DNA of 64,000 nt from Clostridia bacterium (lineage in GTDB: Bacteria > Bacillota > Clostridia > Oscillospirales > CAG-382): contig JAFYPA010000051.1 in assembly GCA_017560085.1 (NCBI GenBank), positions 6,918 to 70,917 of the forward strand, in the 5' to 3' direction. The translations under genes were made by a program, and so were the position numbers. This document shows positions 5,992 to 53,782 of this stretch, piece by piece. Below the pieces are notes generated by a model. The model saw only the letters and a list, made by a program, of their open reading frames with translations. It did no database searches and was not told the DNA's origin. Within the stretch, counting starts at the first letter, position 1, and every line of letters begins with the position of its first letter.

Positions 5992-6591
5992 TTACTTGAG
6001 CTTGAAGGATGTAACGGCGTGGATAAGTGCGCTCTCCCACTTGTCGTAGCTTTGCGGAAGTGCGGTGTAGGTGAAGGTGTAAACCGTTCCCTCAACGATG
6101 GAAACCACCTGCGAGAACTGATAGGTCTTGTCTGCGATTTTCGCTCCGTAAACAACGCGGAGAGCGGGTGCTTCCGTGCTTCCGAGCTTTAATTCCTCGC
6201 GGGAGAATTCGACAAAATCTCCTCCTATTGTGTCCTGCATCTGCTTGTAATATCCGGGATTTTCCTCCGTGCCGTCGCCGTCCCAGTAGGTAAGCACCGC
6301 CATCTGCGGGTCACGGCTGTCAAAGCTTGTGCAGGAGATGGTTACGCGCTCGTCGGGATTCTGCTCGTCCGACTGAACGCTTATCATTCCGTCGTTGCGG
6401 ATAACCGACCATTCCTTGGGAAATTCGAAGGTGTAGCCGACATATTCGTTTTCGGTGGATTTGTTGTCGCCCACTTCAACACTTGCAACCGTGTAGTTTT
6501 CCGATGTTCCTTCGTTGGGCTTTTCACTGCAGGAGCAAAGAAGCACAAGTGAGGTGAGAGCTATTGCACCGATTTTTACGCTTTTCTTCAT
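5992..6591 (-). CDS. Lipoprotein, PsbP/DcrB-like fold
   Basis: Basic N-terminus, hydrophobic stretch and lipobox-like [15 protein letters not shown] and a C-terminal YTFTYTA..Y...F pattern resemble PsbP/DcrB-type proteins. Confidence 0.6.
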
Positions 6592-6771
6592 TTTTCTGTC
6601 CTTTCCTTGAAGTTATCAAACAATCATTCAATTATTAAAATTTGATTATTTTTTCGTCGGAGGTATAATCAAACAATACTCCAACATAATAATTATAACC
6701 CGATATCTTTTTTTATTAAACATCAATTTGTAAACATATTGGCAACTATTAAAAATTTAATATAAAATATG

Positions 6772-49352: not shown

Positions 49353-50138
49353 TCAGATAATGTCCGCGCTTCTGCGTGTTTCCTTGGGAGTTCGTCCCGT
49401 GAATTTGCGGTAAACCCTGCGAAGGTATGAGGGCGAGGAAAATCCGCAGATATCGCATATTTCCTCAAGGGTGAGCTTGCCTCTGACAATAAGCTCCTCC
49501 GCTCTTCGTACCTTTATGAGATTCTTGTAGTCGGTGGGCGTGTAGCCGACGGTTTTTCGGAAAAGATTGTAAAACTTGGACTGACTCATACAGCAGAGCT
49601 TTGCAAGATGCGGTACGGAAATTTCCTCGGTGCAGTGTGCCTCTATGTATTCAACCGCCGCACCGATTTCGCTGTATCTCGGAATCTCCGCCTTTCGGAA
49701 TCTTTTATCCGTCACGGACAGAATTTCGTAAAAGGCAGACAGCGCAACGAGATTGTCACCACCGTCCGAGCCGGAGGAATTGTACAGCCTGTCAAAGGTG
49801 ATTTTCAGCTCGGGAGCGTGTATTTTTGAGAATTCATACATATGACTTGTTGCACTTTCCGATGCGAATTCGAAGTTCAGCGAATAGAATATCAGCTCGG
49901 GCGTTGCCTTCCATACGGATGTATAAATCTGCCCTTTCGGAATAAAAACGAGATCGCCCGGGAAAAGCTCGATTGTTCTGTCAGATGCGGTAAACACACC
50001 CGTCCCCGCAAGGATAAATCCAAAGCAAGGATTTGGAAAACCTATTGTATTTCCCGAAGTATAGCCTGTCCTGTCGTAATGCCGAAAGATATAGCATTTT
50101 GAAAGAAAGAGGGATTTGTCTATATATTTGTGTATCAT
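49353..50138 (-). CDS. AraC family transcriptional regulator
   Basis: Cupin-like N-terminus, C-terminal double HTH (LAKLCCMSQSKFYNLF; CGFSSPSYLRRVYRKFTGRTP). Start could be 50147. Confidence 0.92.
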   Translation of the reverse strand: MIHKYIDKSLFLSKCYIFRHYDRTGYTSGNTIGFPNPCFGFILAGTGVFTASDRTIELFPGDLVFIPKGQIYTSVWKATPELIFYSLNFEFASESATSHMYEFSKIHAPELKITFDRLYNSSGSDGGDNLVALSAFYEILSVTDKRFRKAEIPRYSEIGAAVEYIEAHCTEEISVPHLAKLCCMSQSKFYNLFRKTVGYTPTDYKNLIKVRRAEELIVRGKLTLEEICDICGFSSPSYLRRVYRKFTGRTPKETRRSADII

Positions 50139-50188
50139 AAATGTCACCTTAAAATATTTCGATTTGCAGAATTGTACCCTTTTATGAT

Positions 50189-50217
50189 AGTATACTGTCT
50201 TGTGTGTTATTTGTCAA
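50189..50217 (-). promoter_or_regulatory. Sigma-A promoter of the AraC gene (divergent from the MDR genes)
   Basis: TTGACA-17 nt-TATACT on the minus strand. Confidence 0.7.
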
Positions 50218-50273
50218 TAGGTTATAATGAAAACAGAATAAAACACAATAAGTCATATACAAGGAGTAAACTT

Positions 50274-51293
50274 ATGAAAAGAAAAATAATTCTGTTTACA
50301 GAGCCCTATAAGGCAGAGCTTATCGAGCAGGAAATTGCAGATACTCCCGCCGCAAACGAGGTATATGTAAAAACCGTATATTCCACAATCAGCGCAGGCA
50401 CGGAAAAGGCAAACTTCATCGGAGATATGAATGTCAGCCCGAATCCGAATTTTGTACCTGCCTTCCCGAGATACTGCGGTTATGCAGCGGCAGGTGAAGT
50501 AATCGCCATAGGCAGCAACGTTACAAAATGTAAGGTAGGCGACAGAGTTGTCGTTGCCTGGAGCAGCCACACAAATATTAACGTAAAGGATCAGGGCAAT
50601 ATCGCTATCATCCCCGATAACGTTTCCTATTCCGAGGCTTCTCCCACACTTATTTCAATCTTCCCGCTCTCCGCAATAAGAAAAACGGTACTCGAAGCGG
50701 GTGAATCCTCGCTCGTTATGGGACTCGGTATCCTCGGATGCTTTGCGGTACATCAGCTCCGTGCCCTCGGTGCATATCCGATTATCGCCGCAGACCCCGT
50801 AAAGGAAAGAAGAGACCTTGCACTTCAGCTCGGCGCAGACTATGCCCTTGACCCCACAGAGCCCGACTTCGCAGAAAAGGTAAAGAGCCTTACAAACGGC
50901 GGTGCCGCAACCTGTATCGAGGTAACGGGCGTAGGTCAGGGACTTGACACAGCCCTCGACTGTATGGCAATGCGTGGCAGAATTGCCCTGCTCGGCTGTA
51001 CAAGAGACAAGAACTTTACCATCGACTACTACAGAAAGGTTCACGGCAGAGGCATCCAGATGTTCGGCGCCCACATTGCCGCAACACCCACACTTGAATC
51101 CTCCCACGGCTACCGCACCCAGATGGACGAGGTAAGAACTGTACTCGGACTCCTCGGCGGCGGCAGACTTAACTACAAGCAGTTCATCACAGCCCACGGA
51201 AACCCCGAGGATTGTCAGGAGATTTTCACAAGACTTGCAAACGACAGGAACTTCCCGATAGGATTTCAGTTTGACTGGGAAAACATTAAATAA
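50274..51293 (+). CDS. MDR-family (alcohol dehydrogenase-like) oxidoreductase, copy 1
   Basis: STISAGTE, GYAAAGEV, VMGLGILG (Rossmann), IEVTG, GRIALLG. Start MKRKII behind AGGAG. Confidence 0.9.
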   Translation: MKRKIILFTEPYKAELIEQEIADTPAANEVYVKTVYSTISAGTEKANFIGDMNVSPNPNFVPAFPRYCGYAAAGEVIAIGSNVTKCKVGDRVVVAWSSHTNINVKDQGNIAIIPDNVSYSEASPTLISIFPLSAIRKTVLEAGESSLVMGLGILGCFAVHQLRALGAYPIIAADPVKERRDLALQLGADYALDPTEPDFAEKVKSLTNGGAATCIEVTGVGQGLDTALDCMAMRGRIALLGCTRDKNFTIDYYRKVHGRGIQMFGAHIAATPTLESSHGYRTQMDEVRTVLGLLGGGRLNYKQFITAHGNPEDCQEIFTRLANDRNFPIGFQFDWENIK

Positions 51294-51323
51294 TGCATAA
51301 TGCATAATGCATAATGCATAATT
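51291..51323. repeat. Heptamer tandem array (TAATGCA)4 starting at the stop codon
   Basis: TAATGCA x4 plus TAATT, followed by an AAGACCG-rich hairpin (51324-51359) and GATTGC-TTC-GCAATC (51364-51378). Confidence 0.85.
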
Positions 51324-51419
51324 AAGACCGAAAAGACCGCTTGCGGTCTTCACGGTCTTGGTTGATTGCTTCGCAATCTTCATTTGATTAAAAAATAAAA
51401 TATACACGGGGACATAATT

Positions 51420-51537
51420 GCGAGACGCCCGTCGTTTGGGCGGCTTGCACGGAATACGGTAAAAATTCAGTAGACAAAAAATCAGCACAAACCACACCTG
51501 CGACGATGCCGTGGCTTGGCATCGTTGCACGGAATAC
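51420..51537. repeat. Two 38-bp hairpin repeats with a shared TTGCACGGAATAC tail
   Basis: Copies at 51420-51457 and 51500-51537 have different but self-complementary stems. Confidence 0.75.
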
Positions 51538-51709
51538 ACTCGCCCTCCAACACAGCAGGAAGGTAAGCAACAGAACACCCACAGCACCTCCTAACATATA
51601 ACCCGGCGCAAGGAGCAAAGCGAGTGAAGCCAATATGTCAAATTTTTTGCCGAGCTTTTTTATAAAAAAGCGAGCCGTCGGAGACCTCCCGTAAAAAAGG
51701 AGAATAACA

Positions 51710-52741
51710 ATGAAAAGAAAAACAATAGTATTTACAGAAATAGGAAAGGCAGAGCTTTTGGAGCAGGAGATAGCGGATGAGCCGGGGGATTATGAGGTTT
51801 ATATAAAGACGGTGCATTCGACTATCAGTGCGGGTACGGAGAAGGCTAATGTTTCGGGGGATGTTAATATCAGTATTGCTGATGCGGGAGAAGAGACTCC
51901 CAAGTTCCCGAGAACCTGCGGATATTCGTCCTCGGGAGTTGTATGGAAGGTCGGAAGTAAGGTTACCAAGGTTAAGGTAGGGGATAGGGTTATTCCCAAT
52001 TGGGGCGTCCATACTACAATTAATGTCGTGCACGAGAACGGCGCTGTTAAGATTCCTGACGGAGTTTCGCTTTCCGAGGCTTCTGCGGTTTATATTTCTA
52101 CATTCCCGCTTGCGGCTATCCGTAAGACAGGCGTTGAGGCGGGCGAATCAGCTCTTGTTATGGGACTCGGTATTCTCGGTTGCTTTGCCGTGCATCAGCT
52201 CCGTGCTATGGGTGCTTATCCTATTATCGCCGCTGACCCCGTTGAGGACAGAAGAAAGTTCGCTCTTCAGCTCGGTGCGGACTTCGCTCTTGATCCCTTC
52301 GCTCCCGATTTTGCCGAAAAGGTTAAGGAAATTACGGGTGGCGGTGCTGACACAGCGATAGAGGTTACGGGCGTCGGTCAGGCTCTCGATACTACTCTCG
52401 ACTGTATGGCAATGCGAGGCAGAATCGCTCTTCTCGGATGTACAAGAGATAAGAACTTCACCATCGACTACTACAGAAAGGTCCACGGCAGAGGCATCCA
52501 GATGTTCGGTGCTCATATTATGGCAACTCCCAAAATGGAATCCTCTCACGGCTTCAGAACAATAAGAGACGAAACAATAACCGTTATGAACCTCCTTGCA
52601 GGCGGCAGACTCAATTACAAGCAGTTCATCAACGAGCATAATTCCCCCAACGATTGCTATAATGTTTTCCAAAGACTTATCAACGACAAAAACTTCCCCA
52701 TAGGCTGCCAGTTCGACTGGGACGGCATTCAGGAGCAGTAA
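51710..52741 (+). CDS. MDR-family oxidoreductase, copy 2 (tandem paralog)
   Basis: Same motifs as copy 1, with long identical stretches (e.g. LDCMAMRGRIALLGCTRDKNFTIDYYRKVHGRGIQMFGAH). Confidence 0.92.
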   Translation: MKRKTIVFTEIGKAELLEQEIADEPGDYEVYIKTVHSTISAGTEKANVSGDVNISIADAGEETPKFPRTCGYSSSGVVWKVGSKVTKVKVGDRVIPNWGVHTTINVVHENGAVKIPDGVSLSEASAVYISTFPLAAIRKTGVEAGESALVMGLGILGCFAVHQLRAMGAYPIIAADPVEDRRKFALQLGADFALDPFAPDFAEKVKEITGGGADTAIEVTGVGQALDTTLDCMAMRGRIALLGCTRDKNFTIDYYRKVHGRGIQMFGAHIMATPKMESSHGFRTIRDETITVMNLLAGGRLNYKQFINEHNSPNDCYNVFQRLINDKNFPIGCQFDWDGIQEQ

Positions 52742-52759
52742 AATACGGAGGATACTACT

Positions 52760-53782
52760 ATGAGTAAGAAAATAAGAATTGCACAAATCGGTATCGAGCA
52801 CGACCACGGTCTGTCTACACTCGCATCCCTCAGAAAGCTTACGGATGATTTCGAGGTTGTTGCATACGCCGAGCCCGGCTTTGTCGCACAGAATGAATAT
52901 AACGACGGCCAGAAGAAGGCTATGGAAGGCCTGCCCGTGAAAACCGTAGAGGAGGTTCTCGCAATGGATGACCTCGACGCCATCTCCGTTGAGCCTCACG
53001 ATACTCTCCTTTCAAAGTACGCACAAATGGTTGCGGATAAGGGCGTGCATCTCCACGTAGATAAGCCCTGCGCTACCGATTACCCCTCTATGAAAAAGCT
53101 TATAGATACCGTAAAGGAGAAGAATATCGTGTTCCATACGGGCTATATGTACCGCTTCAATCCCGCAGTGCTCAGAGCCCGTGAAATGATGGAAAGCGGA
53201 CTTATCGGCGAGGTGTTCTCCGTTGAAGCTCATATGGACTGCGAGCATAACCCCGGAAAGCGTGAATGGCTTAACGGAATTCCCGGCGGTATGATGATGT
53301 ACCTAGGTTGTCACCTTGTTGACCTTGTGAAAATGTTTGCTGGCAATACCAAGGACGTAACCTGCCTTTCCACATCAACACACCTTGAGAACGTTCATTC
53401 CAAGGACTACGGCTTTGCACTTTTCAAATATCCCAACGGACTTTCCTTTGCAAAAACCTGCGCCCGTGAAATAGGCGGATTTGACAGACGTCAGCTTGTA
53501 ATTACGGGAAGCAACGCAACCGTTGAAATTAAGCCCCTTGAAAGATACACAAACCTCGGAATGCAGACCTATATGAGCTATGTAACCGACGAAATGACCA
53601 AGACCAGATGGGCAGACTGCAAGTACAATATCGAGTTCCCGAGCTACGACAGATACGACGGAATGATGCATAACTTCGCACAGAAAATAAGAGGCGAGGT
53701 TACGGATATGTTCACTCCCGACTATGAGCTTGAGCTTTATGAAATGGTCGCAAAGGCATGCGGTATTTTTGAGGAAAAATAA
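52760..53782 (+). CDS. Gfo/Idh/MocA family oxidoreductase
   Basis: IAQIGIEHDHG, HLHVDKP, TGYMYRFNP, MMYLGCHLVD. Confidence 0.9.
   Translation: MSKKIRIAQIGIEHDHGLSTLASLRKLTDDFEVVAYAEPGFVAQNEYNDGQKKAMEGLPVKTVEEVLAMDDLDAISVEPHDTLLSKYAQMVADKGVHLHVDKPCATDYPSMKKLIDTVKEKNIVFHTGYMYRFNPAVLRAREMMESGLIGEVFSVEAHMDCEHNPGKREWLNGIPGGMMMYLGCHLVDLVKMFAGNTKDVTCLSTSTHLENVHSKDYGFALFKYPNGLSFAKTCAREIGGFDRRQLVITGSNATVEIKPLERYTNLGMQTYMSYVTDEMTKTRWADCKYNIEFPSYDRYDGMMHNFAQKIRGEVTDMFTPDYELELYEMVAKACGIFEEK

Follow-up and report, generated by a model that had tools for sequence, protein, structure and literature searches.

The REP, BIME and REPIN elements of enterobacteria and pseudomonads are short, oriented, hairpin-forming intergenic sequences that occur in tens to hundreds of copies, combine as mosaics of modules, and are found at gene ends and between co-transcribed genes. 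These features are shared by a repeat that we describe here in a Clostridia bacterium of the gut or rumen (GCA_017560085.1), starting from a 64,000-nt stretch of contig JAFYPA010000051.1 (the window; coordinates are positions in it, on the + strand unless stated). REP, BIME and REPIN elements are mobilized by RAYT, a Y1 HUH transposase, whereas the repeat described here has no sequence relationship to them and no assigned RAYT. One of its copies occupies most of the spacer between two tandem paralogs of the MDR (zinc-type alcohol dehydrogenase) family, hereafter copy 1 and copy 2. A first-pass annotation had drawn attention to an 18-bp palindrome in this spacer, which it regarded as an origin-like site where strand skew flips. 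We find that the palindrome makes up the apical stem-loop of a repeat of 100–280 nt, REP/BIME-like and oriented, of which 27 copies are interspersed in the intergenic DNA of this genome, and that the G/T-ending codons of copy 2 are the most extreme case of a genome-wide footprint left in genes on one side of the repeat. To our knowledge, REP and BIME have not been reported to leave a silent-site strand skew in the genes that flank them, and literature searches turned up nothing on local skew next to REP-like repeats. As far as we know, a one-sided, strand-specific silent-site footprint beside such elements has not previously been described.

Silent-site skew to the right of the repeat

In what follows, the top strand is the repeat's own forward strand, and right means beyond the repeat's right end. 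Twenty-one copies other than the one preceding copy 2 have enough flanking sequence for analysis, and over the first 200 nt to their right the mean all-site GC skew is +0.174 ± 0.030, compared with +0.05 for the 5′ ends of genes and −0.06 for antisense 3′ ends in controls. The right end of a copy adjoins the stop codon of twelve antisense genes, including dnaA, dnaN and two genes coding for histidine kinases. Their GC skew at third codon positions (GC3 skew) is −0.54, −0.61 and −0.52 in the 33-, 33- and 34-codon segments of their last 100 codons, against background values of −0.11, −0.22 and −0.23 for the same segments, and is back at background past codon 100. All antisense genes of testable length (10 of 10) fall below the background median, with z about −6 and an empirical p < 5e-6. 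Eight co-oriented genes besides copy 2, among which proS, aspS, thrS and mnmG, are shifted the opposite way in gene sense (z 3.4–4.2); once read on the top strand of the repeat, the shift of co-oriented and antisense genes is identical in direction. The gene iscU also lies to the right of a repeat copy and was too short to enter the gene set.

The effect decays with distance. Over successive 60-nt intervals the excess (G−C) per silent site is +0.36, +0.28, +0.21, +0.13 and +0.08, and it reaches zero by ~400 nt; the skew near the repeat returns to ~0 within 0.4–1 kb. An excess of T over A of ~+0.1 on the top strand persists to at least 700 nt. Beside the repeat and related cassette modules alike, the zone in which silent sites of the top strand are G-rich and C-poor covers ~350 nt, at the 5′ end of co-oriented genes and at the 3′ end of antisense ones. 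Fourfold-degenerate sites of antisense flanks have C and G frequencies of.57 and.04, versus.32 and.15 in the remainder of those genes; the corresponding values for co-oriented flanks are.19 and.20, versus.37 and.11. Codon positions 1 and 2 are slightly shifted in the same direction as silent sites. The first-pass annotation had proposed examining other motif-bearing copies for skew. Such skew is indeed present in this genome, is distance-decaying and is tied to the DNA strand rather than to gene orientation, but it is missing from 14 copies in four other genomes (see below).

Orthologs that lack the repeat also lack the skew in both cases compared, dnaN and proS. We designate this genome G000, the seven genomes of the genus G000 to G006, and a further related genome G014. 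In G000, a reversed repeat lies directly after the dnaN stop codon, and the third-position keto value (G+T−A−C per site) is −0.40, −0.75 and −0.68 over the last ~130 codons. The frequency of C at third positions (C3) in this segment is.50–.65, versus.19–.32 in G001 and G002, where the protein is 89–90% identical and the site has no repeat. The repeat is located upstream of proS in G000 and G001, its place being taken by an upstream gene in five other genomes. GC3 skew in the first 80 codons of proS is +0.60 and +0.50 in G000 and about +0.10 in G001, and ranges from −0.05 to −0.50 in the first 40 codons in the five genomes without the repeat at this site. Of the changes private to G000 in codons 1–100 of proS, 14 lead to G/T (6 C>T, 5 A>G and 3 A>T) and 1 leads to A/C, versus 21 and 21 in the remaining codons (one-sided Fisher p ~0.003, hand calculation). 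These polarized changes, mainly C>T and A>G on the top strand, bear out the excess that had been predicted for the exposed strand.

Comparison of the two sides of the repeat and of other modules found in such spacer cassettes further delimits the effect. To the right, the repeat has within-gene contrasts of +0.25 and +0.34, heptamer arrays have values of +0.18 and +0.11, and a hairpin module containing GATTGC reaches +0.3 to +0.4. To the left of the repeat and of heptamer arrays they are about zero (+0.03 ± 0.03, n = 56–60), and therefore there is no flip in host genes. Many of the most extreme G/T-rich 5′ ends and C/A-rich 3′ ends of the genome adjoin cassettes that do not contain this repeat; therefore, the palindrome is not required.

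The dehydrogenase locus and the repeat family

The features of the locus are as follows.

50274–51293, +: MDR paralog copy 1 (open reading frame and translation), with C/A-ending, genome-typical codons
51291–51323, +: heptamer array (TAATGCA)x4, beginning with the copy 1 stop codon (read from the sequence)
51334–51349, no strand given: hairpin module AGACCGCTTGCGGTCT, a widespread repeat module (read from the sequence; many BLAST matches to spacer positions 30–70)
51360–51385, +: GATTGC hairpin module GGTTGATTGC-TTC-GCAATCTTCATTT, terminator-like (terminator scan; 28 genome copies by regular-expression search)
51419–51699, +: full-length interspersed oriented repeat, "core" family (BLAST, nhmmer, alignments)
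51538–51648, +: A/C-rich arm of the repeat, the left flank of the first-pass annotation (conserved in 19 copies)
51649–51676, +: hairpin 1 of the repeat (RNAalifold consensus)
51677–51685, +: hairpin 2 of the repeat, GTC-GGA-GAC, in most copies GCC-GAA-GGC (covariation across copies)
51697–51703, +: Shine-Dalgarno-like AAGGAGA, 6 nt ahead of the copy 2 ATG (read from the sequence)
51710–52741, +: MDR paralog copy 2 (open reading frame and translation)
51710–52415, +: skewed part of copy 2, G3-rich and C3-poor to codon ~60–100 and T3-rich to codon ~235 (third-position counts)

The start of copy 1 at 50274 is a correction to the first-pass annotation. The two paralogs share 72% amino acid and 70% nucleotide identity, and the Pfam domains PF00107, PF08240 and PF16912 were found in homologs of copy 2. 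The 416-nt spacer between them, in which the palindrome resides, is assembled from genome-wide repeats according to BLAST and forms a mosaic cassette in which the heptamer array, the hairpin modules and the repeat follow one another. Its 281-nt repeat copy stops 10 nt short of the copy 2 start codon and holds two 38-nt hairpin units, the A/C-rich arm, the palindromic hairpin, a mini-hairpin and the end ...CCTCCCGTAAAAAA. The palindrome GCTTTTTTATAAAAAAGC, correctly positioned at 51654–51671 from the outset, is the inner stem and loop of hairpin 1, the outer pairs of which carry on past a tandem G.A/A.G mismatch. The two 38-nt units (51420–51537) differ in stem sequence, each hairpin being followed by TTGCACGGAATAC; they are the left modules of the full-length repeat, and shorter copies begin after one or both of them.

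Over approximately the first 60 codons of copy 2, 30-codon windows contain 0–2 C-ending and 12–15 G-ending codons. Codons ~60–235 are T3-rich, and from codon ~240 codons are C/A-ending as in copy 1, in which the third-position keto value ranges from −0.10 to −0.39 along the gene. This profile, G-rich near the repeat and T-rich further out, matches the genome-wide shape. A GC skew of at least 0.36 is reached by 0.19% of the 300-nt windows of the genome, and among 1,500 genes copy 2 ranks fourth for GC3 skew in the first 100 codons and first for the contrast between these codons and the rest of the gene. The hand counts that had originally suggested a skew flip are all exact (A33 C30 G20 T7 in 51541–51630; C67 G72 in 50281–50580; C45 G96 in 51721–52020; C78 G58 in 52441–52740), but two of them have another meaning than a local footprint. 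The A/C-rich left side, taken at first for a footprint on neighboring DNA, is the conserved arm of the repeat itself, with a consensus over 19 copies of A48 C44 G38 T29. The C-rich return in the last 100 codons is common to all homologs of this gene and therefore lies outside the local effect. Between positions 52405 and 52525 (codons ~232–272), copy 2 is ~90% identical at the DNA level to positions 50960–51085 of copy 1, compared with ~55–70% elsewhere, and third-position identity in the same stretch is raised in all homologs; it could be a gene-conversion tract or reflect a silent-site constraint.

An ortholog of copy 2 in genome L021 (GCA_054295225.1), here L021_A, shares 82% amino acid identity with it. 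Third-position keto values per 60 codons are +0.50, +0.23, +0.20, +0.13 and −0.23 in L021_A and +0.47, +0.20, +0.33, +0.13 and −0.32 in copy 2, and third-position identity between the two in the first 60 codons is 0.68–0.74. L021_A sits behind a different, heptad-armed cassette, and the order of the paralogs is reversed. Homologs that have no upstream cassette (G006, G002_b) show no 5′ peak, the single-copy homolog of G006 being T/G-ending throughout. In L021 (3001–5366), the copy 2 ortholog comes first, after an AraC-type gene, and the copy 1 ortholog second, and both spacers hold palindromic cassettes armed with (GGACAGT)n. The same locus contains one gene in G006 and a tandem pair 34 nt apart in G002. 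The swapped paralog order between species suggests a repeat-mediated rearrangement.

Far from being a unique site, the palindrome belongs to one of 27 genome copies that were found by nhmmer to include the right end of the repeat. BLAST matches to the repeat have 70–90% identity and lie on more than 17 contigs of this genome. Exact matches to the 18-mer number three in the genome and those to a 29-mer two, all of them within copies of the repeat, and all the copies inspected are intergenic. Most copies have a CT or TC loop in hairpin 1, and the perfect palindrome of the present copy is therefore a variant. RNAalifold reveals compensatory double changes in 3 of the 11 pairs of hairpin 1, with 1 broken cell only; stem variants in which pairing is kept include GCTTCTTT..AAGAAGC, CTCGCTTTT..AAAAGCGAG and a swap of the outer C-G pair to G-C. 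The middle pair of hairpin 2 is C-G in 13 sequences and U-A in 5. Multicopy, intergenic and endowed with a hairpin of conserved pairing, the repeat is a new member of the REP/BIME-like class. Its other copies end 12–33 nt before start codons or within −6 to +51 nt of the stop codons of antisense genes. An Rfam scan of 50000–53000 gave three sub-threshold matches (best score of 26.9 bits versus a gathering threshold of 79), none of them over 51419–51699. We rejected an intrinsic terminator as the identity of the palindrome, as the terminator scan calls only the GATTGC hairpin (51364–51378, +) in 51200–51800 and nothing on the minus strand of the repeat. We infer that the reverse strand of most copies presents a short GCC-TTC-GGC stem followed by GCTTTTTT.

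A BLAST survey of the seven genus genomes detected the repeat in five of them, with 22 copies in G000, 3–11 in four others and 0 in two. Fragments occur in a few genomes outside the genus, and the repeat is thus confined to the genus and a few relatives. It occupies orthologous sites in G001 (C46:5673–5765, upstream of proS) and G002 (C140:6678–6733, upstream of iscU), where skew is weak or absent; at least some insertions are therefore older than the species splits. In G000, outside the window, reversed copies at C78:4703–4802 and 6546–6649 directly follow the dnaN and dnaA stop codons. Both genes have strongly C-rich 3′ ends, which for dnaN is not so in relatives. The genome also contains 119 (GCATAAT)n arrays of at least 2 units; the co-oriented gene to their left ends at a median distance of 27 nt, and its stop codon is often overlapped. 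Perfect period-7 arrays with three units or more number 146.

Matches to the Y1 transposase domain (PF01797) were found in G000, G001, G002 and G005, the four genus genomes richest in the repeat, and not in G003, G004 or G006; Y1 is also absent from both repeat-free genomes, and G004 has three weak repeat copies and no Y1 gene. The Y1 genes of G000, of IS200/IS605 type, are located at C97:61–417, C21:6592–6951, C39:71755–71832 (just beyond the window end) and C44:4–81. The divergent C21 copy, a weak PF01797 match, could be a candidate RAYT-like gene. An IS200-like Y1 transposon was rejected as the partner of the repeat, the ends of the intact C97 copy being unrelated to it.

Origin of the footprint

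Local, strand-specific and decaying with distance, the footprint behaves like a mutational one and is tied to a cis element; the interpretation given in the first-pass annotation is partly supported. Comparison with orthologs and with repeat copies in other genomes shows that the footprint arose in this lineage. Because the bias is oriented by the repeat in both gene orientations, decays, is mainly synonymous and lineage-specific, and is weak or absent in relatives, a shift in mutational equilibrium fits it better than a fixed constraint. In addition, skew is little or none where the repeat precedes the same gene in relatives (proS in G001, iscU in G002), which argues against a fixed functional constraint on the flank. 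We therefore favor, with moderate confidence, a lineage-specific, polar mutational process at the cassettes as the probable basis of the footprint. According to this model, a polar DNA transaction would start at the cassette and proceed rightward. The geometry of the bias calls for a top strand that, to the right of the repeat, is either left single-stranded (in an R-loop, say, or through displacement) or resynthesized again and again from a strand-specific nick. Candidate processes would include repair synthesis or strand displacement proceeding rightward from such a nick, an R-loop, and outward transcription from an unrecognized promoter. In either case the local mutational equilibrium would move to C>T and A>G on the top strand, and purifying selection on proteins would mostly limit the outcome to silent sites. 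On this view the palindrome is a structural part of the repeat rather than a trigger on its own, and the site is not a replication origin. The lack of Rho and EndoV in the genus is compatible with persistent untranslated transcripts and with unrepaired deaminated adenine. More tentatively, and with somewhat less confidence, we propose that the REP-like cassettes of this lineage might be sites of recurrent polar DNA transactions that rewrite the silent sites of whichever gene lies on one side. These would be either strand-specific nicks with resynthesis or strand displacement over a few hundred nucleotides, or an R-loop that persists, in a genus with neither Rho nor EndoV.

Several observations weigh against this interpretation. 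Heptamer arrays and the GATTGC hairpin module show a G excess of the same sign in the nearest 120 nt to their left, which a purely rightward process fails to account for. Likewise, the last ~20–40 codons of genes left of (GCATAAT)n arrays are G3-enriched, and a one-sided model gives no explanation for this. No effect on the right flank is seen for the 14 repeat copies of G001, G002, G004 and G014 (delta +0.01 ± 0.035), an outcome that was unchanged when the initial crude frame calls were replaced with frames re-chosen by a coding-likeness score; all-position skew profiles of three loci were uninformative. The footprint is therefore lineage-specific, and the repeat alone is not sufficient to produce it. 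The absence of Rho and EndoV throughout the genus gives no reason why only this genome shows the effect. In gene sense, the dnaN changes mostly lead to C (15 T>C, 9 A>C and 3 G>C), and top-strand T>G does not agree with simple deamination. Polarization by parsimony is weak at this level of divergence. No sigma-70-like promoter (−35/−10 hexamers with 16–18 nt spacing) was detected in 51200–51800. Finally, the gradient of L021_A implies that part of the bias of copy 2 was inherited and not made at this palindrome.

General processes were considered as well. A general promoter or transcription-associated bias was rejected, since gene 5′ ends behind long repeat-free spacers show no skew enrichment and the sigma-70 promoter score is unrelated to 5′ skew genome-wide (rho 0.016). 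An effect of replication direction was rejected because repeat orientation is random relative to both the ±15-kb skew (10 of 20 copies positive) and gene-strand bias. Matches to the DnaA box TTATCCACA with at most one mismatch number 17 in the window versus 11.9 expected, and none lies between 48119 and 53031. With no DnaA boxes nearby, 27 copies, a skew that is only local and no tie to large-scale skew, the origin-like reading of the site is untenable. Template switching or palindrome extension, by which the right flank would evolve to become complementary to the arm, was also rejected, as flanks match the reverse-complemented arm no better than shuffled sequences do (Smith-Waterman mean z 0.10) and their duplex energy has only a marginal advantage (z −0.52). 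A lineage-specific loss of deamination repair was discarded, given that UDG is found in 7 of 7 and EndoV (PF04493) in 0 of 7 genus genomes; neither therefore sets this genome apart, which is a further difficulty for the polar process that we favor. By established polarity rules, we reason, models based on a replication block or on resection at double-strand breaks would place the footprint on the other strand or the other side.

Selection at the RNA level could also be envisioned, with cassettes being transcribed within untranslated regions and the adjacent 100 codons being selected to be G-rich and C-poor in one reading direction and C-rich and G-poor in the other, for the control of folding, stability, termination or R-loop avoidance around the hairpins. 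Compensatory changes keep the hairpins paired, and some structure is thus selected. The position of the repeat, 12–33 nt before starts or −6 to +51 nt of antisense stops, also agrees with this explanation, as does the slightly better pairing of real than shuffled flanks with the arm (mean duplex z −0.52, n = 25). We nevertheless consider it unlikely, given that the sign of the bias tracks the DNA orientation of the repeat and not the gene end: no such bias is seen in 3′ ends before forward cassettes or in 5′ ends behind reverse cassettes. Moreover, the flanks complement the arm no further than their composition explains (Smith-Waterman z 0.10), the first two codon positions drift alike, and the same arrangement is weakly or not skewed elsewhere (proS in G001, iscU in G002, and 14 copies overall). 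The version of this explanation based on Rho and rut sites was rejected, as the Rho RNA-binding domain (PF07497) is absent from 7 of 7 genus genomes, the control search having matched 9 of 14 reference genomes. A history peculiar to copy 2, the 5′ two-thirds of which would have inherited or recombined a G/T-ending codon usage next to an irrelevant palindrome, is consistent with the matching profile of L021_A behind a different cassette with swapped paralog order, with the uniformly T/G-ending homolog of G006, and with the fact that copies 1 and 2 are most alike at codons ~232–272 (nucleotide identity ~0.9). It seems improbable to us because it leaves unaccounted for both the 18 other repeat-adjoining genes with the same strand-specific decaying bias and the gain of bias in dnaN and proS in this lineage only. 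L021_A also has an upstream cassette and fits a cassette-linked reading equally well. The first-pass annotation had named a sharp breakpoint as the mark of a recombinant donor fragment; we found none, the sliding identity of copy 2 to G006, G002_b, L021_A and copy 1 keeping the same nearest relative. Nowhere does copy 2 come nearer to G006 or G002_b than would be expected, and its C-rich 3′ end is common to all homologs.

We view with comparable skepticism the original proposal that the palindrome triggers bidirectional unwinding or nicking and generates mirror-image skews; the left footprint would then have to be absorbed in the arm of the repeat. The left arm is indeed A/C-rich on the top strand, and its length of ~160–230 nt is near the right-hand decay length. 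Arm variants in 19 copies comprise 77 toward A/C and 70 toward G/T, though A/C bases are commoner (92 versus 67), and this near-equal flux implies that the bias is maintained and not decaying (~2.5 standard deviations by our own estimate, the copies not being independent). However, balance of this kind would follow from whatever keeps the composition at equilibrium, selection on the repeat included. Neither a flip nor bidirectionality is demonstrable in host genes, as those left of cassettes have no opposite-sign skew and the excess beside arrays is of the same sign. Nor can the palindrome be a lone trigger: most copies have a CT or TC loop instead of a perfect palindrome and yet show the effect, cassettes without this hairpin show it too, and the gradient recurs in the ortholog of copy 2, where the cassette is another one. 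The lack of nearby DnaA boxes argues in the same direction. An assembly artifact (contigs misjoined at repeats, for example, or an erroneous consensus) or mere chance seems very improbable to us. This is a metagenome-assembled genome of 128 contigs with an estimated completeness of 91%, several repeat copies are located at contig ends, and the effect is absent from four other genomes. Yet the changes are overwhelmingly synonymous in intact conserved proteins (DnaN, DnaA, ProS, AspS, ThrS, IscU), and their sign is set by repeat orientation in both gene orientations, which donor codon usage cannot do. The same gradient is also present in the copy 2 ortholog of another species, which was assembled independently, and the empirical p value of < 5e-6 speaks against chance.

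Significance and relation to known systems

The footprint drives fourfold sites as far as 57% C and 4% G and has reshaped how essential genes use their codons, but in a single lineage. If it is mutational, it would show at which places, and on which of the two strands, the DNA keeps being opened or resynthesized, a natural site-directed process that would provide a handle on what REP-like elements do to DNA. Interspersed repeats would then be local directional mutators of housekeeping genes (dnaA, dnaN, tRNA synthetase genes), and their footprint would be of a kind undescribed in bacteria. If it is selective, it would reveal a constraint by which repeat hairpins are tied to the coding sequence beside them. 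Whichever applies, outlying codon usage in genes beside repeats should not be taken as a signal of horizontal transfer or expression level.

The arrays of the cassettes resemble the heptanucleotide repeats described in other prokaryotes, the cyanobacterial STRR and long prokaryotic heptamers, which likewise form period-7 intergenic arrays with several unit sequences per genome. Unlike these, the arrays found here start at stop codons, form one arm of hairpin cassettes and are accompanied by skew on the oriented right side. At the ColE1 plasmid origin, a zone of Pol I synthesis of a few hundred nucleotides extends downstream in one direction and is primed by an R-loop. It is likewise polar, strand-specific and a few hundred nucleotides long, and offers an analogy for nick- or R-loop-primed resynthesis; however, ColE1 has the defined RNA II primer of a plasmid origin, and nothing comparable was identified here. 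Gradients of C>T and A>G that follow the time spent single-stranded are known from the mitochondrial heavy strand, and GC skew is associated with R-loops downstream of mammalian CpG-island promoters. As in our case, one strand is enriched in G and T, the enrichment is attributed to exposure, and it decays from a start point. In contrast, these are organelles and eukaryotes with defined starts of replication or transcription, whereas no promoter is detectable at the repeat and ordinary promoters of this genome leave no such trace. The asymmetry that surrounds oriC has the same sign (an excess of G over C and of T over A on the strand that leads 5′ to 3′ away from the site, in replication the leading strand) and the same inferred changes, C>T and A>G. 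It differs in extending over megabases instead of ~0.4 kb and from one site instead of ~27 or more, while the footprint described here runs in one direction, has no DnaA boxes and is unrelated to large-scale skew. Strand asymmetry in bacteria is usually read as a chromosome-scale trace of replication with a weaker share of transcription; here it is found on a scale of ~0.4 kb, on one side only and linked to a mobile, oriented repeat.

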